Positions 12,096 to 22,874 of a DNA stretch of 35,042 nucleotides are shown in pieces. Positions within the stretch are counted from its first letter, which is position 1. Every line of letters begins with the position of its first letter. Source of the stretch: an uncultured Nitrososphaerota archaeon (lineage in GTDB: Archaea > Thermoproteota > EX4484-205 > JAAOZO01); assembly GCA_964639105.1 (NCBI GenBank), contig CAZXBW010000002.1:1-35042 (forward strand), written 5' to 3'. Below the pieces are notes generated by a model. That model did not search any database. It saw only the letters and a list, made by a program, of their open reading frames with translations, and had not been told where the DNA came from. Made by a program: the position numbers and the translations under genes.

Positions 12096-13469
12096 ATGGA
12101 AGATGTCTTGGTAGTCGGTGCTGGACCAGCAGGCGCAACCGCCGCTAGGTTCGCCGCTGAGGCTGGCCTCTCAGTCCTTCTTCTGGATCAGAGCTCGAGT
12201 AAGCAGATCGGTGACAAGGTCTGTGGAAATGCGATAGGAATGGATGTGTTCGAGAAGGTCGGCATCGACCCGCCGAAGTCAGCGTACCACGGGCTGGTGG
12301 AAGGCATAGAGATAGTCTCTCCAGACTGGAAGATGGTCTACCGACTTGAGCAGGAAGGAGAGAAAGGGATGATCCTAGACAGGCTGGGATTCGGCCAGTA
12401 CCTGTTGCAGCTGGCGCTCGACGCCGGCGCAGAACTGCAAGACAGCTTCGCAGTCACAGGACCCGTGCTTGATGGAGGTGTGATCGGCGTGCGTGGGCTC
12501 AATCAGAAGACGAAAGCCAAGGAAGAGCACAGGGCCAGAGTCGTAGTGGATGCCTCTGGAGTAGGAGCAGTGATAAGGAGAAACTTGGGGGATCTCGTCG
12601 ACAACTCGACCGAAGATGACGAGACAATGGTTTGCCACAGACAAATCAGGAAAGTATCCGAACCCATAACGAGGTACTCACGGATATACTTGGATCAGAA
12701 AACGGCTCCCGGCGGATACTTCTGGTACTTTCCCATGGGCGACGGAATGGTGAACACCGGGCTTGGCGTGGCAAAGGGTACGACAAGTCCAGAGCCAGCC
12801 TTCGAAGCGTACGCGAAGAGAGTCCCTGGATTGGCGGAATCAACTTTGGTCCATGCTGGTTCAGCTGTAGTGCCTACCAGAAGGCCCATGTCTCCATCGG
12901 TGTACGATGGAGTCATCTTCACAGGGGACGCAGGCTTCACCGTTGACCCTCTGCATGGTGGAGGAATAGCTTCCTCAATGCAGGCGGGAAAGATAGTCGC
13001 TGAGACTCTCGTGGAAGCCATCAGCAAAGGAGATCATTCGGTCAAAGCGCTCTGGCGATCCTGTCGCGACTTCAACACAACTGTAGGCTGTGTTCATGCA
13101 TCCCATGACGTGCTGAGGATCTTCCTCCAAGGACTGTACAACGAAGAGGCAGACCTTGGCATGGCAAACGGAATAATCACGGAGCAGGATGTCAAAGACA
13201 TGAGTTCGGGCAGACCGCTAAACCTAGGTCTGACCGAGGGGATTCACAGATTGCTGACCGGCGCTGGCAAGGCTCAGCTGTTGGCCAAATTGCTAAGGCT
13301 GCCAGGACTGTTGAACGAAGCAGAAAATCTGTACTCCAGATTTCCCAGCGGACCCGGCCCCGAATTTCAAGCTTGGAAACAAAGGGATCTGGCCCTTCAC
13401 AGAAGGGCCCACGATCAGGTCGGTGGCACCGCCTTGGCTAGGGCCATGGCTTCCGCGAAGGGTAACTGA
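12096..13469 (+). CDS. Geranylgeranyl reductase family flavoprotein (archaeal lipid saturation type)
   Basis: The FAD dinucleotide fold VVGAGPAGATAARFAAEAGLSVLLLD and the motif GDAGFTVDPLHGGGI are present. The 457-aa length is consistent with long GGR paralogs. Confidence 0.85.
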   Translation: MEDVLVVGAGPAGATAARFAAEAGLSVLLLDQSSSKQIGDKVCGNAIGMDVFEKVGIDPPKSAYHGLVEGIEIVSPDWKMVYRLEQEGEKGMILDRLGFGQYLLQLALDAGAELQDSFAVTGPVLDGGVIGVRGLNQKTKAKEEHRARVVVDASGVGAVIRRNLGDLVDNSTEDDETMVCHRQIRKVSEPITRYSRIYLDQKTAPGGYFWYFPMGDGMVNTGLGVAKGTTSPEPAFEAYAKRVPGLAESTLVHAGSAVVPTRRPMSPSVYDGVIFTGDAGFTVDPLHGGGIASSMQAGKIVAETLVEAISKGDHSVKALWRSCRDFNTTVGCVHASHDVLRIFLQGLYNEEADLGMANGIITEQDVKDMSSGRPLNLGLTEGIHRLLTGAGKAQLLAKLLRLPGLLNEAENLYSRFPSGPGPEFQAWKQRDLALHRRAHDQVGGTALARAMASAKGN

Positions 13470-15127
13470 AGTCTGCAGGCTCTGGTTTCACTGGTTCTCC
13501 TCTCCTTTTCCTATAGGAAGCTGAGATGAAACCATAGAAACATGGGTTCGGGGATCCGGGCCAGCTCTTGAACTCAGGGTGGAATTGCGTGGCAAGGAAG
13601 AACGGATGACCTGACAGGGCAAGTATTTCGGCCCTTCCGTCATCTGAGTTGCCCACGATCTCCAGCCCAGATTCGTTGAGCTTGCTGATATAGTCGCTGT
13701 TGATTTCATATCTGTGCCTGTGCCTCTCGAACACCTCCTCCCTTCCGTAAATCTTGTGAGCTAGACTTCCTGATCTCAGGTTGACCCGGCTCACTCCAAG
13801 TCTCTGAGTTCCTCCCATCTGGCCTATCTTCAATTGCTCCTTGGATATGTGCACGACTGGATAAGGAGTGTTCGGGTCGACCTCTGTTGAATTTGCGCCG
13901 TCCATACCTAGCACATTTCTGGCGAATTCCACGGCCGACAACTGAAATCCAAAGCACAAACCCAGAAACGGGACTAGGTTCTCTCTGGCGTACTTCATTG
14001 AAAGCATCTTTCCCTCTGCCCCCCTGCTTCCGAACCCTCCCGGAACCAGAATGCCATCGGCCCCACCGAGCAGATCATCTGTCGCCCCTTTCTTCTCCAG
14101 TTCCTCCGCCTCAATCATCTCGACATTCACCTTGATCGCCAGCTTGCCTCCTGCGTGGTGCAGGGCGTCCATCACGCTGATGTAGCTGTCAGGAACGCTA
14201 ACGTACTTGCCTATCAGCGCTATCTTGACCTCGTCCTTGGGTTTCAGGATCCCCTCAATGGATCTGCTCCAAGCGCTCCAGTTGGGTTTCTGGCCCTTGA
14301 GGTTCAATTCGTCACAGACTGCGTCTCCAAGCCCCTGTTGGTCCAAGTATTCCGGCAGTGCGTATATCGACTCCAAGTTCACGGCCGCAAACGCGTACCT
14401 CCTTTCTACAGAGGAGAACAACGCGACCTTCTGCATTACATCCTCTGGTGGTGCTCCCTTTGACCTTACGAAGATCAAGTCAGGCTGGAGGCCTATCCTT
14501 CTCAACTCTTGGACGCTGTGCTGAAGAGGTTTCGTCTTGTACTCACTGACGGTTTCCAGAAATGGCACGAGCGCAACATGGGCGATGACAGTGTTGCCCT
14601 CGCCCACTTCCAATCTCATCTGCCTCACGGCCTCAAAGAAGGGCATCCCCTCTATGTCCCCAACAGTACCTCCTATCTCAACTATTCCAACATCGGCCTC
14701 TGCAAGCTTCGTGGCCTCGCTTATCCGTTGCTTTATCTCGTCAGTGACATGGGGGATTATCTGCACACATTTCCCGAGATAGTCGCCCTTCCTTTCCCTC
14801 TGTATCACCTCTAGGTAGACTTGGCCTGTAGTGATGTTACACTTCTTTCCGATGGTGTTGTTCAAGAACCGTTCGTACCTACCTAGGTCGAGGTCGGTTT
14901 CGCCGCCATCCTCAGTGACGAAGACCTCTCCGTGCACGTACGGGTTCATGAGCCCGCTGTCGTAGTTGAGATACGGGTCTATCTTGATGGCGGTGACCTT
15001 GAGGCCTCGGACCTGCAAGCACTTGCCGATCGAGGCGGCCACGGACCCCTTTCCAATTGCTCCTCGTCTACGACGAGTCTGAGCTGAGGACGCCGCCCGT
15101 CACGAACACGTACTTGACCTCTCCCAT
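13438..15127 (-). CDS. pyrG: CTP synthase, split gene. Exon 1 is 15079..15127, the 22-nt BHB element is 15057..15078, and exon 2 is 13438..15056. The product is 555 aa if spliced.
   Basis: The downstream ORF contains DPYLNYDSGLMNPYVHGEVFVTEDGGETDLDLGRYERF plus a glutamine amidotransferase domain (GLCFGFQ, HRHRYE). The missing N-terminus MGEVKYVFVTGGVLSS is encoded from ATG 15127 behind a GGAGG, in another frame, and ends at TAG 15068-15070. Removing 15057..15078 joins the two parts in frame. Confidence 0.85.
15057..15078 (-). other. Candidate bulge-helix-bulge (tRNA-type) intron inside pyrG. The full motif spans 15053..15087.
   Basis: The minus-strand RNA reads UCA-GCUC-AGA-CUCGUC-GUA-GACGAG-GAGC-AAU-UGG. 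The outer helix is UCA/UGG. The central 4-bp helix is GCUC/GAGC. The 3-nt bulges AGA and AAU lie on opposite strands, each 3' of its central-helix strand. The inner 6-bp helix carries a GUA loop. Cutting after bulge nucleotide 2 on each side excises 22 nt. Confidence 0.6.
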
Positions 15128-15137
15128 TGTCAACTGC

Positions 15138-15142
15138 CCTCC
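15138..15142 (-). promoter_or_regulatory. Shine-Dalgarno-like GGAGG, 10 nt upstream of the pyrG exon 1 ATG
   Basis: The minus strand reads aaGGAGGgcagttgacaATG. This supports 15127 as a genuine translation start. Confidence 0.45.
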
Positions 15143-15186: not shown

Positions 15187-15194
15187 TAAATAAA
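15187..15194. promoter_or_regulatory. A/T-rich TATA-like element (TAAATAAA) in the divergent pyrG / SIS-gene intergenic region
   Basis: This is the only strongly A/T-rich block in the 15128..15261 spacer. It could serve either or both divergent genes. Confidence 0.3.
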
Positions 15195-16356: not shown

Positions 16357-17670
16357 TTGGGCTTGCAAGTTGTCATCTTCGAGGATGAAGCTGCTCATAA
16401 CCTCGAGCCTTTGACTCTCACCCGCGGTGCTTTCGACATCAGGCTCGGTCCACTCTCTTTCACCGAACGCATCAAGTGCTACTTGAAAGCGGAGCGCGTG
16501 GACTTTCTGTCGAGGGATTACATCGCTGAGCATATTAGGGCGAAGAAGAGGGTCAAGGCAAACGAACCCGATGCAATAGATGACGAGGCTCTCTTCGTAA
16601 ATGGGATGCTGGTCTTTGACCATGACCTCAGGATTATTGCCAAGAATATCAAACCGGGGACGGTCGTCTTCAAGTCAGATAGGCTAGTGATGGCGAAGTT
16701 CGGCCAGTCTCCAGCAAGAGAAGCTGCCAAGTTGCTCATCGGGGCCCCGGGGCATCAACCCATGGCATCTCTTGAGTCCATGGCCCTTGAGCGGAGGGAA
16801 TATGAGGGTGACGCCCTGATCACGAACCTATGGGAGCTCATTGAGAAGAACACACATCAGATCTCTAAGGACATCGCCATCGTGCCAAAGGGATCCCGAG
16901 GGAGGATTTCGACGAAGGCCGTGGTCGTGGGGAACAGAAAGAATCTCGTCATGGCCAAGGATTCCGAGGTCGACCCTTACGTCGTGCTGGATGTGACGGA
17001 AGGGCCCATATACATAGGTGAGAAGTCGAAGATCTACGCTAGCAGCTGGATAAAGGGCCCGGTCTACATAGGGTCAGGCTCAATCATCCATCCAGGTTCA
17101 GTGATAAGGGAAGGCTCAAACATAGGAGATGTCTGCAAAGTTGGGGGAGAGGTCGAGGAATCCATAGTGCACGCCTACTCGAACAAGCAACACGCGGGAT
17201 TTCTCGGCCACGCGTATGTGGGCGAATGGGTCAACCTCGGCGCGTTGACGACCAACAGCGACCTGAAGAATGACTACAGCACCGTGGAGATTCACGTAGG
17301 AGGTCGGCTTGTAGACTCTGGGACTCAGAAGCTCGGATCCTTCATAGGCGATCACACAAAGACCAGCGTTGCTTGCTTCCTGAACACAGGGACGGTAGTA
17401 GGTGCCATGTGTAACATCATCTCAGGGGGTGACCCTTCCCCCAAGTTCATTCCATCCTTCTGTTGGTACTTCCGGGGAAGGTTCAGCAAAGGATGGGGGT
17501 TCAGGAGGACCATCGAAACGGCAAGGGAGGTCATGAAGCGGAGAGATGTGACGCTGACGGATGAAGATGTGACCATGTACCAGCGGATCTATGATATGAC
17601 TGAGGAAGAGAGAGAGAAACTGATAAAAAGGTCAAGGGTCAGGCGAAGAGAAAGGACAGACCAAGCCTAA
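16357..17670 (+). CDS. GlmU-like sugar nucleotidyltransferase-fold / left-handed beta-helix acyltransferase-fold protein
   Basis: The N-terminus [27 protein letters not shown] resembles the putative sugar nucleotidyltransferase family. The C-terminal half consists of hexapeptide repeats ([47 protein letters not shown]...). The start is TTG. Confidence 0.65.
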
Positions 17671-17680
17671 ACAGGAGGGA

Positions 17681-17935
17681 TTGAGGTTGTCAGTGGAAAG
17701 CAAGGTGAAGAAAGTTCTGGCTGAGACACTCGGGATTGATGAATCAGAAGTAAAACGTGACTCGAAGTTTGTGGAAGATCTCGGCGTCGAGTCCCTTGAC
17801 ACGGTCGAGATCGTGGCCGCTCTGGAGGAGGAATTCGACATAGATATTCCGGACGAAGATGCCGAGAAGAACGTGACCGTCGGTCAGGCAATCGATTACA
17901 TCGAAGACAAGCTGAAGCAGAAGAAAACTCCATGA
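17681..17935 (+). CDS. acpP: Acyl carrier protein, bacterial AcpP-like
   Basis: The sequence [67 protein letters not shown] is nearly collinear with bacterial AcpP (..[45 protein letters not shown]). The phosphopantetheine serine is conserved in ESLD. An AGGAGG lies at 17672-17677. The likely start is TTG 17687, or TTG 17681. Confidence 0.85.
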
Positions 17936-17957: not shown

Positions 17958-18377
17958 CTACCCAGTGAGCACGACGATCGCGATGGCGTAGTCGCCCGTG
18001 TGGGACAGGCTTGTCATAGATTCCTTCACCCCCCTCTCTCTCATCCTCTCCTCCAACGCCCCGGATATGTTCAACACGGGAGCTCCTCTTTCATCCCGAG
18101 AGATTTCTATGTCAGTCCATTTCGCGCCTCGTCCCCAACCGATGCCGAGTGCCTTCAGCGTAGCTTCTTTGGCAGCGAATCGCGCGGAGAGATGCGAGTA
18201 GGGCTCCTTCTGTTCATAGCAGTATCCTATTTCCTGCGGCGTGAAGATCCTCCCCAGAAAGCGTTGGGTTCTCCTGCTACATGCAATCCGCATCCTTTCA
18301 ATTCTCACTATGTCCACTCCCACTCCTTTCACTGAACCAGTCTTGCTTGGATAGTCGTCGAGTCCTGTCTTCCTCAA
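17958..18377 (-). CDS. acpS: Holo-[acyl-carrier-protein] synthase (4'-phosphopantetheinyl transferase, AcpS type)
   Basis: The AcpS pattern is present: GVGVDIVRIERM...FTPQEIGYC...LSARFAAKEATLKALGIG...WTDIEISRDERGAPVL...LSHTGDYAIAIVVL. The TTG start forms a TTGA overlap with the ackA stop. An internal GTG start nearer to GVGVD is possible. Confidence 0.85.
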   Translation of the reverse strand: MRKTGLDDYPSKTGSVKGVGVDIVRIERMRIACSRRTQRFLGRIFTPQEIGYCYEQKEPYSHLSARFAAKEATLKALGIGWGRGAKWTDIEISRDERGAPVLNISGALEERMRERGVKESMTSLSHTGDYAIAIVVLTG

Positions 18378-19582
18378 CCACTTCTTCTTCTCCGGAGTAT
18401 CTCGACTGTGTCCCTGGCGATCATGAGTTCCTCTCTCGTAGGAACTACCAGAACTTTAACCTTGGAGTCATCCGAACTGATCATTCCCTGCCATTTGGCG
18501 GGATCTCTGTTCTTGCTCACATCGAGACGTACCCCGAGGAACTCCAATCCTCGGCAGGCCTCCGAGCGGATGTATTCTGCGTTCTCTCCTATTCCAGCTG
18601 TGAAGACAATCGCATCCACTCCGCCCAGAACAGCAGCGTAGGCTCCGATGTACTTTCTGACCTTGTATGCGAGAATTCTCAGCGCCAGCTGCGCCCTGTT
18701 ATTCCCTCTCTCGGCCTCGCTCTTGACCTCCCTGACGTCATTGCTTACTCCGGATATGCCAAGCAGCCCACTCTTCCTGTTCAGTATCTCGTTTATCTCA
18801 GTGAGATCCAGTCGCGCCTTCTCCGCTACGAAGAAGATGATGGATGGATCAATGTCGCCACACCGAGTCCCCATCGGCAGACCCTCAAGGGGTGTGAATC
18901 CCATGCTGGTATCCACGGATTTACCCCGATCGACGGCGGTGATACTGCAGCCATTCCCAAGGTGGCACGTGATTATCTTCAAGCTCTCAAGATTTCTTCC
19001 CATTATCTGCGCTGCTCTTAGCGCAACGTACCTGTGCGAGGTTCCGTGGAATCCGTACCTCCTGACCCCGTATTTCTCATAGAATTCATATGGTAGGGCG
19101 TATATGTACGCCTCCCTGGGCATCGTCTGGTGGAAGGATGTGTCAAACACGGCCACTTGGGGGGCATCAGGCAGAAGGTCCATTGCGGCTTCTATGCCTG
19201 CGAGGTTTGGAGGATTGTGCAGGGGCGCCAGTGCTGCAAACTTCCTGATCGTCTGCATGACTTTTTCGTCAATCAGAGTTGATTCGATGAAGGCATCCCC
19301 TCCGTGAACCACCCTGTGACCTACTGCAGATATCTCTGAAGGATCCTTGATCACACCTCCCGATTTCTCCAACAGGTGATCGATGACTAGGCGAAGGCCC
19401 TCACGGTGACTGTGTGCGATCACTTCTTCTTTTATCACCTCTTTTCCAACCCGGTGTGACAGAAGTGAGCCCGGCTCCCCTATTTTCTCCAAGAGACCCT
19501 CGGCCAGCACCTGCTCCCTTTCCATGTCGAGAAGTTGATACTTGATGGAAGAGCTACCGCAGTTTATGACGAGGATCTTCAT
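18374..19582 (-). CDS. ackA: Acetate kinase
   Basis: The N-terminus MKILVINCGSSSIKYQL, the motifs VGHRVVHGG and RYGFHGTSH, and the 402-aa length fit AckA. Confidence 0.92.
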   Translation of the reverse strand: MKILVINCGSSSIKYQLLDMEREQVLAEGLLEKIGEPGSLLSHRVGKEVIKEEVIAHSHREGLRLVIDHLLEKSGGVIKDPSEISAVGHRVVHGGDAFIESTLIDEKVMQTIRKFAALAPLHNPPNLAGIEAAMDLLPDAPQVAVFDTSFHQTMPREAYIYALPYEFYEKYGVRRYGFHGTSHRYVALRAAQIMGRNLESLKIITCHLGNGCSITAVDRGKSVDTSMGFTPLEGLPMGTRCGDIDPSIIFFVAEKARLDLTEINEILNRKSGLLGISGVSNDVREVKSEAERGNNRAQLALRILAYKVRKYIGAYAAVLGGVDAIVFTAGIGENAEYIRSEACRGLEFLGVRLDVSKNRDPAKWQGMISSDDSKVKVLVVPTREELMIARDTVEILRRRRSG

Positions 19583-19583
19583 G

Positions 19584-20603
19584 TCAGGCTAAGGCACCCT
19601 GAGCTTCCACGCAGATGATAGCTATGGTACCGGCGATGTCCTCCGGATTCGCTCCCCTGGAAAGGTCGCTGATAGGCTTGGAGAAACCTTGGAGAATGGG
19701 CCCATAGGCCTCGGCCTTTCCCATGTACTGGACGAGCTTGTAGGCGATGTTAGCTGCGTTCAAATCGGGGAAGATAAGGACGTTAGCCTTTCCGGCGACC
19801 GGATTCTCACCCTTGATCTTCTTCTTCGCTACGGCTGGGACGATTGCAGCATCGGCTTGGAACTCTCCGTCGATCAACAGGTCAGGGGCCTTCTTCTTTG
19901 CAATCTCGGTTGCCTCGATGACCTTCCTCGTCAGAGCATCGTAAGCACTGCCCTTTGTTGAGAACGAAAGCATCGCCACTCTTGGGACCCAATCAAACAG
20001 GAGCTTCGCGCTGCGAGCCGATGATATAGCAATGTCCGCCAGTTGAGCGGGCGTGGGATCGGGATTTACTGCAACATCAGCGAAAAGAATCGCACCCTTC
20101 TCCCCTCCTTCGAAGTCCGGCTTGTTCATCAGGAAGAAGCTTGAGGGGGTCGATATGTCGCCCTGAAGGCCTATGATCAGGTTGGCGGCTCTGACCACAC
20201 TGGCGGTGAGGTTCACAGCCCCGGCGACCATGCCGTCAGCCTCTCCGACCCTAACCATCATGGCCCCGAAATAGAGACTCTTCCTGAGGATCCTCCTTGC
20301 CATTCCTTCATTGACATTTTTCTCTTTCCTCAGTTCACAGTACAGGTTCACGTACCTGTCGAGATCAGCGGACTTCTCCGGGTCCAGAATCCTCATCTTC
20401 GCAAGATCAACGTTCAGGCCTGAAGCTTTCTCTCTGATTGAATCCTCATTTCCCAACAGTGTTATGTCAGCGATTCTCTTCTGTGACGAGATTTCCGCTG
20501 CCCTCAGAGTCCTTTCATCCTCTCCCTCAGGAAGGACAATCTTTCTGGGGCTCTCTCTGGCTCTATCCATGATTTCGCCCACTATGTCCATCTCACGTAC
20601 CAC
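19584..20603 (-). CDS. pta: Phosphate acetyltransferase (short-form Pta)
   Basis: The sequence IVLPEGEDERTLRAAE...FFLM...ILFADVAVNPDPTPAQLADIA...DGEFQADAA...ANVLIFPDLNAANIAYKL is the PTA_PTB pattern. The start is GTG 20603 or ATG 20591. The stop lies 1 nt from the ackA ATG. Confidence 0.9.
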   Translation of the reverse strand: MVREMDIVGEIMDRARESPRKIVLPEGEDERTLRAAEISSQKRIADITLLGNEDSIREKASGLNVDLAKMRILDPEKSADLDRYVNLYCELRKEKNVNEGMARRILRKSLYFGAMMVRVGEADGMVAGAVNLTASVVRAANLIIGLQGDISTPSSFFLMNKPDFEGGEKGAILFADVAVNPDPTPAQLADIAISSARSAKLLFDWVPRVAMLSFSTKGSAYDALTRKVIEATEIAKKKAPDLLIDGEFQADAAIVPAVAKKKIKGENPVAGKANVLIFPDLNAANIAYKLVQYMGKAEAYGPILQGFSKPISDLSRGANPEDIAGTIAIICVEAQGALA

Positions 20604-20751: not shown

Positions 20752-21222
20752 GTGCTTCCCAATGGTCAGTTGCTCGCCTGGGAAGATGAGCTCAACGAAG
20801 TACTAGAGGAGCTGAAGAGGTCAGGAGAGAAACTCACACGACTAAAATCGCTTATGCTAGCGGGCAAGATATCAAAAGAAACGTACGAGAGCCTAATCAT
20901 CAAGTTCGAGGCGGACGCCTCCAGTGCTGAGAAAAAGAGAAGGGCACTCATCGAAAGCCTCTCGAAATCTCACAAGGAACTATCCGAACAGGCGAAGCTG
21001 TTTGAGAACCTGATCTTGTCCCTTGAAGCCAAGCTTGCGTCCTCAGCTGTCTCTGAGGATCACTACGTCAAGATATCGACCGCCTTGAAGTACGGGCTTG
21101 AGGAGACGATAAGGGAGATGGAAAGCGTGTCAAGTGCTCTTACTGAGCTCTACAAGGAGGCTCCTGAGCCGAACCAATATCTCATCGACAGGGCCATGAA
21201 AAGGGTAGAGAAGGGCGAGTGA
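20752..21222 (+). CDS. Hypothetical coiled-coil protein
   Basis: The 156-aa sequence is charged and heptad-rich (EDELNEVLEELKRSGEKLTRLKSL..., ISKETYESLIIKFEAD...). I recognise no catalytic motif. The start is GTG. Confidence 0.4.
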   Translation: MLPNGQLLAWEDELNEVLEELKRSGEKLTRLKSLMLAGKISKETYESLIIKFEADASSAEKKRRALIESLSKSHKELSEQAKLFENLILSLEAKLASSAVSEDHYVKISTALKYGLEETIREMESVSSALTELYKEAPEPNQYLIDRAMKRVEKGE

Positions 21223-21225
21223 AGA

Positions 21226-22554
21226 TCATCCCAAGTAGGCTTCTGCCAACGACAGGCAGAATTCGGCCCCTCCTACGAGGCTTTCGAAGTCTATGAATTC
21301 GTTCGGCGCGTGAACTCTGGAATCGATCAGGTCAAAATCGGCCTTTCTTGAGTACACTTCTACTCCTAGAGCTTTGGTTCCTATTCCCCTCATGTATCTG
21401 CTGTCGGTTCCAGCCGGCAGCATGTATCGGAAGGTTCCGTCAGCATTGCTAGCCGCAGCGAGTGATCTCGAGACCACACTTTCGAAATCTGGGTCCAACT
21501 CGGAACCAGTTCCTTCCGACTGCGCCACGATCTCGATTCTTGTCCTTTCGTCGCCCACTAGCCCCCTGAGCCAATCGATTGCCTCTTGTGGATTGGTGCC
21601 TGGCGGAAGTCTACAGTCAACGGTCACCTGTGCGCTTGGGGGGACCACGTTGGGCCTGACACCCGCCGATAACATGGTCGGAGTTGCCGTTATTGCAGCC
21701 TCTGCCCTGATTTTGGACCAGTTCACTCTGTCGATCGTCCTCACTCCCTCCAGGACCCTGAGGAAGTTGGACTCTGTGACTTCCTGACTCAGTCCGTGCG
21801 CTTTGAGCAGGGCACGGAGGTGCCCAAGAGCCTCGGCAGAAAGCTTGGGTTTGTCCTGCGCTTTCCCTATGGCGCGGGTAGCCTCCATCACTTTCAGAAC
21901 AGCATTGTCAAGAAGATACGGCACTGATGCGTGTCCACCATCACCTTCGCAGGTTATGCGCACCCAAAGGATTCCCTTCTCGGCTGTTTCGTATCCTATG
22001 ATCCTACCTCCCTTCCCATTTATCACAAGTCCACCTCCTTCAGTGACGCAGTACTCGGTCCTCACCAATTCTGGCATGGCGTTCACAATGTGACCGATGC
22101 CCTTGCTCCCTCCGTTCTCCTCATCGGCTGTCTCAACCAGCACCAATCTTCCACGGGGCTTGAACCCCTCTCTCTTCAGCTTGAGGATAGCGAAGACTTG
22201 GGCCGCGACCAAGTTCTTCATGTCGGCCGCCCCCCTGCCAAATATGTTGCCTTCACGCTCAGTCGCTGCGAAAGGAGGCGTCTCCCAAGCTTCAAGCGGC
22301 CCTGGTGGCACGACATCCAAGTGCCCGAGAAAGGAAAGAGACCTGCTACCTGTGCCGCGGATTTCCGCTATGATATTCCCTCTTCCCGGTTCACTCTCAA
22401 CCAACTTCGAGGAGATCCCGTGCTCGCTCAGGACATTCGATATATAGTGGGCGGCAACGACTTCGTTGCCAGGGGGATTGGACGTGTCAATCTGGAGCAG
22501 GTCCCTGAAGATCTTCTTGAGTTCTGTCTTCTCCTCTGAATTCAGTTCGGTCAC
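21226..22554 (-). CDS. M20 family metallopeptidase/deacylase (ArgE/DapE/ACY1-like)
   Basis: The M20 layout is present: LLQIDTSNPPGNE, FLGHLDVVPPG, GRGAADMKN, ETADEENGG. The start is GTG. Confidence 0.8.
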   Translation of the reverse strand: MTELNSEEKTELKKIFRDLLQIDTSNPPGNEVVAAHYISNVLSEHGISSKLVESEPGRGNIIAEIRGTGSRSLSFLGHLDVVPPGPLEAWETPPFAATEREGNIFGRGAADMKNLVAAQVFAILKLKREGFKPRGRLVLVETADEENGGSKGIGHIVNAMPELVRTEYCVTEGGGLVINGKGGRIIGYETAEKGILWVRITCEGDGGHASVPYLLDNAVLKVMEATRAIGKAQDKPKLSAEALGHLRALLKAHGLSQEVTESNFLRVLEGVRTIDRVNWSKIRAEAAITATPTMLSAGVRPNVVPPSAQVTVDCRLPPGTNPQEAIDWLRGLVGDERTRIEIVAQSEGTGSELDPDFESVVSRSLAAASNADGTFRYMLPAGTDSRYMRGIGTKALGVEVYSRKADFDLIDSRVHAPNEFIDFESLVGGAEFCLSLAEAYLG

Positions 22555-22874
22555 TGCTGCCCCACCGGTACGAGTTCGATCTTGTTCTTGGATACCGTCA
22601 TCTCCATGACATCGTTGATTATCGGCTTTCCCAACGAAGAGTACTCCTCCATTGTGAGATACAGTGACAGTCGAGGATTGTGGGACTTGGGGAATATCCC
22701 CGTCTGTTGGAGGCCGCTCATGACCTTGAAGGCCATATCGGAGACATATTCCTCATCTGAGGAAGGAGATTGTCCTCTGATCACAGGAGGCTCAATCGTT
22801 GTCATGTCAAGCCTCACTCCGGGCTTTCCCTCAATCTCAAACGAGGTTATCGAGACAACTTTGACAAGCGACAA
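22551..22874 (-). CDS. Hypothetical small protein (107 aa)
   Basis: This ORF has no competing ORF with better support. Its stop forms a GTGA overlap with the start of the downstream M20 gene, which suggests co-translation. I recognise no family. Confidence 0.4.
   Translation of the reverse strand: MSLVKVVSITSFEIEGKPGVRLDMTTIEPPVIRGQSPSSDEEYVSDMAFKVMSGLQQTGIFPKSHNPRLSLYLTMEEYSSLGKPIINDVMEMTVSKNKIELVPVGQQ

Follow-up and report, generated by a model that had tools for sequence, protein, structure and literature searches.

A predicted tRNA-type intron interrupts the CTP synthase gene of an uncultivated archaeal lineage

How can a complete CTP synthase be made from a pyrG gene whose first codons and main reading frame do not join? 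The question is raised by a contig of an uncultured Nitrososphaerota archaeon (CAZXBW010000002.1), of which a stretch of 35,042 nucleotides (nt), here called the window, was analysed. The open reading frame (ORF) called as pyrG on its minus strand (13438..15042) begins at a GTG, encodes 534 amino acids starting MAASIGK and lacks the GGxxSSxGKG motif. The missing N-terminus is encoded upstream in a different frame: from the ATG at 15127 the sequence reads MGEVKYVFVTGGVLSS, continues as DSS and ends at a UAG (15070..15068). Because this stop codon lies in the frame of the first coding segment, unspliced RNA would yield only a 19-residue peptide, and the 534-residue ORF, being without the GKG loop of the synthetase domain, could not specify an active CTP synthase. 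This loop is required for CTP synthase activity and is gapless in every homologue compared. From the sequences described below we infer that pyrG very probably carries a genuine, spliced intron of the bulge-helix-bulge (BHB) or tRNA type, with exon 1 (15127..15079, 49 nt) separated by a 22-nt insertion (15078..15057) from exon 2 (15056..13438).

Excision of the insertion (15078..15057) by the rule that applies to tRNA introns joins the exons into a coding sequence of 1668 nt, or 555 codons and a stop. The spliced product aligns without gaps across the junction with solved CTP synthases (Thermus 1vcm, E = 1e-186, residues 5-531), and its motif becomes GGVLSS-V-GKG, the intron lying between the first and second bases of the valine codon. 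Four different 22-nt excisions restore the frame, giving isoleucine, valine, aspartate or again aspartate at the junction; the BHB rule picks valine. Among relatives without the interruption the nearest are P0007 and P0008, which have GGVLSSVGKGSVAASIGKCLQ and whose DNA is contiguous here. In P0008 (58% identity, locus L055) the sequence GGT GTA TTG AGT TCT GTA GGT AAA GGT encodes GGVLSSVGKG, which matches the predicted spliced product residue for residue. The gene order of L055 is in part common with that of the window (CdvA, pyrG, geranylgeranyl reductase, Trm1). In silico, cuts after the second nucleotide of each bulge restore the complete CTP synthase reading frame.

The RNA that surrounds the insertion has the fold expected of a substrate for such cuts. 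Read on the minus strand from 15087 down to 15053 it is UCA GCUC AGA CUCGUC GUA GACGAG GAGC AAU UGG, in which the defining BHB arrangement, two 3-nt bulges on opposite strands 4 base pairs (bp) apart, is present (AGA and AAU around GCUC/GAGC). In a tRNA with an intron at position 37/38, nucleotides 32-35 form pairs with positions -3 to -6 of the intron; one bulge is made of nucleotides 36 and 37 and intron position +1, the other of intron positions -2 and -1 and nucleotide 38, and each bulge is cut behind its second nucleotide. The handedness of the bulges in the pyrG motif agrees with this geometry. The minimum-free-energy fold computed with ViennaRNA (-14.7 kcal/mol) recovers the central helix, the 5′ bulge and the hairpin.

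Much of this had been proposed in a preliminary description of the locus. The sequence confirms its statement that the called ORF lacks an N-terminus, which is encoded from the ATG at 15127 behind a GGAGG in another frame that runs into a TAG. The geometry that it described (a 4-bp central helix, two 3-nt bulges of the correct handedness and a 6-bp inner helix) agrees with the sequence, with the ViennaRNA fold and with the tRNA 37/38 comparison. Its prediction that removal of 22 nt restores the frame and GGxxSSxGKG in a gene of 1668 nt and 555 codons is upheld by the gapless alignment, with valine at the junction as in the intron-less relatives. It had also called the fold a canonical hBHBh′ substrate, a term that suits the central helix, the bulges and the inner helix but not the outer helix, which is weak and ambiguous in register.

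The comparison across related pyrG loci drew on the DNA behind the six closest protein clusters (L001-L011), two GTDB species genomes (L012-L013) and a pattern scan of metagenomes (L043-L054); L001-L013 and 11 of the 12 pattern-scan matches make up the 24 related loci. The twelfth match (L044, with a 37-nt spacer) was a chance match outside pyrG. The insertion occurs at the same codon in all 24 loci, down to 67% protein identity, and an assembly artefact is excluded because the same insertion appears in more than 20 independent assemblies, which come from JGI, ENA, Logan and NCBI. In a collection of 5.8 billion proteins the six closest clusters (65-90% identity) are all N-terminally truncated (503-534 amino acids), as are the members listed for them, none of which exceeds 534 amino acids. 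The next relatives, at no more than 59% identity, are full length and belong to Bathyarchaeia, Brockarchaeota and unnamed lineages.

Eight distinct intron sequences were found, seven of them 22 nt long. In the lineage of L010 and L013 the intron has 23 nt, with an extra C bulged from the inner helix, and the spliced frame and junction are unchanged; the junction reads UCA G^UU GGN (^ marking the point of joining) in every variant and encodes SS-V-GKG. Standard pairs occupy 97.2% of base-pair cells among 11 distinct sequences, compared with 38-52% after a shift of the partners by 1-3 columns. All 11 variants are 100% paired in the central helix, where U-A has once become U-G, and the bulge lengths are kept. 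The inner helix (h′) has 5-6 bp across variants, and at three of its six pairs both sides have changed in a compensatory way: 21-36 from C-G to U-A, 22-35 from U-A to C-G and 25-32 from U-A to G-C. The outer helix is 97% paired without covariation, and L010 can form an outer helix of 6 bp. At the middle position of the 3′ bulge all four bases occur across variants, as expected for the unpaired last nucleotide of an intron. The alignment of related loci strongly supports the earlier proposal that a tRNA-type intron splits pyrG: the insertion is conserved at one codon in 24 of 24 loci, three inner-helix pairs carry compensatory changes, and a 23-nt variant keeps the frame.

An in-frame stop lies at the same exon-1 codon in every orthologue (mostly UAG, with UAA in L003 and UGA in L007), a pattern that may reflect selection to keep unspliced RNA from being translated out of frame. 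In every lineage the spliced coding sequence stays open, with 550 or 548 codons counted from the tyrosine codon of KYVF, and the ratio of nonsynonymous to synonymous divergence (dN/dS) of spliced pyrG against its orthologues is about 0.06. Among 12 orthologous sequences, all nucleotide differences in the exon-1 codons Y..S are synonymous, which indicates that exon 1 is translated in its own frame. The intron is identical at 22 of 22 positions between the window and both L012 and L046, although the proportion of synonymous differences (pS) of the genes is 0.41-0.50; the probability of finding no intron difference at the synonymous rate is about 1e-5 or less. Synonymous sites were compared in the eight distinct sequences obtained by protein similarity (window, L001-L004, L007, L010 and L012), the pattern-scan loci being left out since the pattern itself demanded those bases. 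In this set the synonymous sites of AGC, UCA and GUU are invariant, while neighbouring codons vary freely. These three codons form the central helix and the bulges, which fits the predicted double constraint of coding and RNA structure.

How strong is the motif by itself? A permissive scan (4-bp helix, 3-nt bulges, inner helix of at least 4 bp, outer helix of at least 3 bp, intron of 14-120 nt) found 110 BHB-like motifs in the window; 20 dinucleotide shuffles averaged 100, and a BHB-like motif alone is no rarer than chance there. This count weighs against the splicing interpretation, as do several further points. The outer helix has only 3 bp including a G-U, one of its pairs is broken in L004, and the minimum-free-energy fold shifts it to the register UCC/GGA. 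The thermodynamic fold of L004 instead has an outer helix of 6 bp and a 3′ bulge of only 2 nt, and in L003 the minimum-free-energy fold differs, with the central strands paired in an alternative way. The intron variants that can be counted as independent number only about eight, so the covariation statistics rest on few events. Neither endA nor rtcB, nor cbf5, is among the genes of the 35-kb window, and ARAGORN found no tRNA genes, hence no intron-containing tRNA, in 15 related loci. No spliced, cDNA-like protein fragment of the clade was found in the protein collection, either in a search with the spliced N-terminus or among the cluster members; the best matches of that search belonged to other lineages and reached no more than 75% identity, with no cDNA-derived or intron-less close relative among them. 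One of its matches, P0121, was set aside as an internally duplicated artefact.

Set against these points are the position of the motif and the comparison. By an estimate from the shuffle scan, the chance that the cut sites of a motif hit one of the four combinations that restore the alignment is about 5e-5; with the further demand of 6 bp or more in the inner helix it falls to about 7e-6. When every BHB-like motif in the window was scanned for the merging of ORFs, pyrG ranked top and was the only convincing case; the 21 other matches had weak helices and joined unrelated or antisense frames. The case for the intron rests on comparison, and the comparative evidence is independent of the chance estimate. 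The motif itself stands between the strict hBHBh′ form and a relaxed one. The weakness of the outer helix leaves the 3′ site less sharply defined than the 5′ site, and if the L003 and L004 folds are real its definition may depend on the enzyme and not on the RNA alone.

Taken together, the presence and fold of the insertion, its conservation through compensatory changes and the fact that its removal restores the protein exactly support a model whose steps follow those known for archaeal tRNA and cbf5 splicing. The pyrG pre-mRNA would fold into the BHB, and the splicing endonuclease EndA would cut each 3-nt bulge behind its second nucleotide (AG^A and AA^U). The RtcB ligase would join ...AGCUCAG to UUGGAAAGG..., giving the predicted RNA junction ...CUCAGCUCAG^UUGG..., which in read sequence would appear as GTCCTCAGCTCAG^TTGGAAAGGGGTCC; the released 22-nt intron would probably be a small circle. 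The 555-residue enzyme would be encoded only by the spliced mRNA, and ribosomes on unspliced RNA would halt at the conserved in-frame stop after 19 codons. EndA and RtcB are universal in archaea, and their presence in the host is assumed on that ground.

Could ribosomes cross the insertion without splicing? Translational bypassing of the T4 gene 60 type would involve take-off at UCA (15082-15080), landing at GCA (15060-15058) and resumption at AUU GGA AAG. Like the gap in gene 60, the pyrG insertion is a short non-coding interruption of an essential ORF with a hairpin and a stop; the hairpin is stable and directly follows the motif, a skipped length of 22 or 23 nt would be tolerable, and the codon after the landing site is AUU, GUU, CUU or UUU by lineage, all of them hydrophobic. 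Gene 60, however, acts at the ribosome through matched take-off and landing codons, which are essential in that system and absent in pyrG, where they are unmatched (UCA versus GCA) in every variant. The stop is also three codons past the take-off codon rather than adjacent to it, the resulting protein would carry I, L or F at a position that is V in all close relatives, and neither the invariant 4-bp helix with its two 3-nt bulges nor the frozen synonymous sites of AGC UCA G^UU would be accounted for. To our knowledge, bypassing is not known in archaea, where BHB splicing is universal, and we consider it a very unlikely explanation here. Programmed ribosomal frameshifting through the insertion, which would give an enzyme with about seven extra residues, seems less credible still, to the point of being negligible. 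A hairpin is present, and archaeal split genes including cbf5 were formerly mistaken for frameshifts (PMC2738675), but the conserved in-frame stop would force the shift to occur within three codons, and the seven extra residues would fall inside the GGxxSSxGKG nucleotide-binding loop, which is gapless in all homologues. Moreover, 22-nt insertions would need a shift of +1 and 23-nt insertions one of -1 or +2, so that orthologues would have to use opposite mechanisms.

That gene callers return only truncated ORFs of 493-534 amino acids would also be expected of a pseudogene, or of 22 nt introduced by faulty assembly or sequencing, with a truncated protein or none as the product, and a second pyrG may lie elsewhere in the genome. 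This is extremely unlikely, given that the interruption is common to more than 20 independent assemblies, that both exons are under strong purifying selection (dN/dS of about 0.06, synonymous changes only in exon 1), that the full-length orthologues have no further stops and that a truncated ORF without the GKG loop could not be active. A refinement of the splicing model, rather than a competitor to it, is that removal of a real BHB intron is regulated and acts as an on/off gate on CTP synthase, as in HAC1/XBP1 splicing. The intron lies 49 nt from the start codon, contains a conserved in-frame stop and, rather than being lost, has persisted throughout a deep clade under strong selection, and bacterial pyrG is regulated through its leader. 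HAC1/XBP1 splicing likewise removes a very short intron (26 nt in XBP1) cut by a protein endonuclease at RNA stems, joins the ends with a tRNA-type ligase (RtcB in animals) and changes the reading frame; it differs in being a regulated stress switch and in its nuclease, IRE1, which is not of the EndA/TSEN family. The requirement that an essential gene remain a good substrate for EndA accounts equally well for the conservation of the pyrG intron, and the cbf5 intron has no known regulatory role (PMC7714728). Regulated splicing is on balance improbable, and equally doubtful is the idea of a conserved control device in which splicing by EndA and RtcB would gate CTP synthase and the stop would silence unspliced RNA. 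Were it true, the device would be an archaeal counterpart of XBP1/HAC1 that ties pyrimidine nucleotide supply to RNA-processing capacity, and it would suggest that regulatory mRNA splicing by protein enzymes predates eukaryotes.

Two other classes of RNA were considered. A group I or group II self-splicing intron is ruled out by the size of 22 nt, as against a ribozyme core of hundreds of nucleotides, and Rfam gave no match in the window; a tRNA or tRNA fragment was sought with Rfam (gathering threshold) and ARAGORN, which found nothing in the window, and the element is accordingly neither.

The features of the locus are collected in Table 1. A GGAGG or a GGGG-rich equivalent is also found upstream of the start in orthologous pyrG loci, and an element (A/C)ATTTATT(T)A likewise lies upstream of pyrG in L002, L004, L010 and L012. 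The TATA-like element of the window is probably the pyrG promoter, which would imply a leader of about 30-35 nt; it sits in the intergenic region common to pyrG and a divergent SIS-domain gene. At its other end, pyrG overlaps the 3′ end of a convergent geranylgeranyl reductase gene (12096..13469) by 32 nt (13438..13469), and the same 32-nt overlap is present in L001, L002, L004 and L007. The CTP synthases of the clade have an extra C-terminal tail of about 20 residues past the glutaminase domain, ending in the conserved motif FSYPS...W (about 13441..13510 in the window). Similar tails occur in intron-less relatives (DYDYPAS in P0007 and P0008, FSYAAS in P0009), and the solved structures are without one.

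Table 1. Coordinates of the pyrG locus, its predicted intron and two marker genes in the window.
Feature	Position	Strand	Description
pyrG exon 1	15079..15127	-	49 nt; codes MGEVKYVFVTGGVLSS plus G, the first base of the Val codon
pyrG exon 2	13438..15056	-	starts UU GGA AAG GGG; stop codon 13438..13440
Predicted BHB intron	15057..15078	-	22 nt, ACUCGUCGUAGACGAGGAGCAA
Shine-Dalgarno-like GGAGG	15138..15142	-	10 nt upstream of the ATG at 15127
TATA-like box TTTATTTA, candidate archaeal promoter	15187..15194	-	about 60 nt upstream of the pyrG start
In-frame stop UAG within the intron	15068..15070	-	exon-1 frame
Whole BHB motif	15053..15087	-	folds around the 22-nt insertion
Outer helix	15087-15085 with 15055-15053	-	3 bp: U-G, C-G, A-U; weak
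Central helix GCUC/GAGC	15084-15081 with 15062-15059	-	4 bp
5′ bulge AGA	15080-15078	-	3 nt, 3′ of its central-helix strand
Inner helix CUCGUC/GACGAG	15077-15072 with 15068-15063	-	6 bp
Loop GUA	15071-15069	-	3 nt
3′ bulge AAU	15058-15056	-	3 nt, 3′ of its central-helix strand
CdvA homologue	20752..21222	+	weak, E = 6e-4
Arcadin-1 homologue	22551..22874	-	E = 9e-9

How does the pyrG intron relate to known systems? With tRNA 37/38 introns it has in common a 4-bp helix, two 3-nt bulges 3′ of their strands, the predicted cut after the second bulge nucleotide and the short intron. It differs in having no tRNA body, the exon part being protein-coding and hence under double constraint, and in a local sequence that shows no sign of tRNA origin, with a C at the equivalent of U33; ARAGORN and Rfam found no match. 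Within mRNAs, a cbf5 pre-mRNA intron in Desulfurococcales and Sulfolobales was reportedly described by Watanabe et al. in 2002 and by Yoshinari et al. in 2006. The BHB introns of cbf5 have 16-44 nt and are often not fully canonical, and their relaxed motifs go with broad-specificity endonucleases (Yokobori et al. 2009, PMC2738675). The weak outer helix of pyrG resembles these relaxed motifs, which would fit a host with such an endonuclease. Cleavage of the cbf5 intron by EndA has been demonstrated (cited in PMC2738675 and PMC7714728).

The two introns are alike in being short BHB introns (22-23 nt in pyrG) within the protein-coding region of a TACK archaeon, in interrupting the most conserved active-site motif (GGVLSS^VGKG in pyrG), so that removal is needed for function, in vertical inheritance across a clade, in having been overlooked by gene callers and in a motif that is often not fully canonical. 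They differ in that pyrG encodes a core metabolic enzyme whereas cbf5 encodes an RNA-modification enzyme, in that the pyrG intron lies at the extreme 5′ end of the gene (codon 17), and in the host, which for pyrG is an uncultivated clade near Bathyarchaeia and Brockarchaeota and not Desulfurococcales or Sulfolobales. Splicing of cbf5, moreover, was shown by reverse transcription PCR and EndA cleavage, while that of pyrG is inferred. The BHB intron in the 5′ untranslated region of the HVO_1309 mRNA of Haloferax volcanii also makes an mRNA an EndA substrate whose removal matters for expression (PMC7714728); in contrast to pyrG, it lies in an untranslated leader, interrupts no reading frame and has a euryarchaeal host.

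As of 2009, splicing had been confirmed for no gene other than cbf5 (Yokobori et al. 2009, PMC2738675); apart from the 5′ untranslated region case, crenarchaeal cbf5 was the only other archaeal mRNA BHB intron reported in 2020 (Schwarz et al. 2020, PMC7714728), and a 2025 structural paper on EndA still cites the cbf5 work alone for mRNA introns. The view in the preliminary description that coding-region BHB introns are known only from cbf5 accords with this literature (PMC7714728, PMC2738675). No paper joining the bulge-helix-bulge with CTP synthase was found in the literature searched, which left most subscription journals out of reach, and pyrG goes unmentioned in the papers found on archaeal introns and the splicing endonuclease. 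By its sequence, the pyrG intron has the features of the BHB class and would add a new gene and a new lineage to the very rare kind represented by cbf5.

The host belongs to the TACK/Thermoproteota group and not to the Euryarchaeota, because CdvA and Arcadin-1 homologues are present in the window, the best intact homologues come from Bathyarchaeia and Brockarchaeota, and the matching records bear the names Thermoproteota and Nitrososphaerota; the same evidence contradicts the earlier impression of a euryarchaeal-looking genome. CdvA and Arcadin-1 mark the cell-division and cytoskeleton systems of TACK archaea. With this placement, the host shares a superphylum with the cbf5 cases but stands outside the orders in which the cbf5 intron occurs. 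A 1.47-Mb metagenomic contig (L004) is collinear with the window, and the two have in common the genes for SMC, ribosomal protein S8e, SRP19, TFIIB, FtsJ, Trm1, geranylgeranyl reductase and pyrG, and further those for the SIS-domain protein, acetate kinase, phosphotransacetylase, CdvA, an M20 peptidase, D-aminoacyl-tRNA deacylase and an Lhr helicase.

Some neighbours of pyrG are of interest in their own right. A bacterial-type acetate kinase (18374..19582, minus strand; Pfam E = 2e-158) and a phosphotransacetylase (19584..20603, minus strand; E = 4e-114) occupy the same place in L004; this pair is uncommon in archaea. Near pyrG lies a gene for a nucleotidyl-transferase/hexapeptide protein (16357..17670, plus strand), with the SIS-domain protein alongside. 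An ORF of 84 amino acids (17681..17935, plus strand) reads like an acyl carrier protein, and its counterparts in L003 and L004 match PP-binding; a 4′-phosphopantetheinyl transferase (17958..18377, minus strand) completes this small cluster beside pyrG. Carrier-protein systems are rare in archaea.

The intron bears directly on how this gene is annotated. All public pyrG calls listed for the clade (P0001-P0006 and P0241-P0263) are N-terminally truncated and without the nucleotide-binding loop; they begin at false GTG, ATG or TTG starts, the complete calls have 473-534 amino acids, and several are annotated as CTP synthase. This systematic truncation is attributable to the intron. Annotation pipelines systematically miss such genes, and completeness estimates and metabolic reconstructions could wrongly flag pyrG as defective. 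The defined junction and the eight natural variants offer a concrete test for further mRNA introns in archaeal metagenomes and a way into the question of whether introns of this kind are regulatory. If spliced as predicted, pyrG would be the second protein-coding gene family with a tRNA-type intron, after more than 20 years in which cbf5 stood alone. As an essential metabolic gene unrelated to cbf5, in a different, uncultivated TACK lineage, it would take mRNA splicing by the tRNA machinery beyond a peculiarity of one gene or of hyperthermophilic Crenarchaeota.

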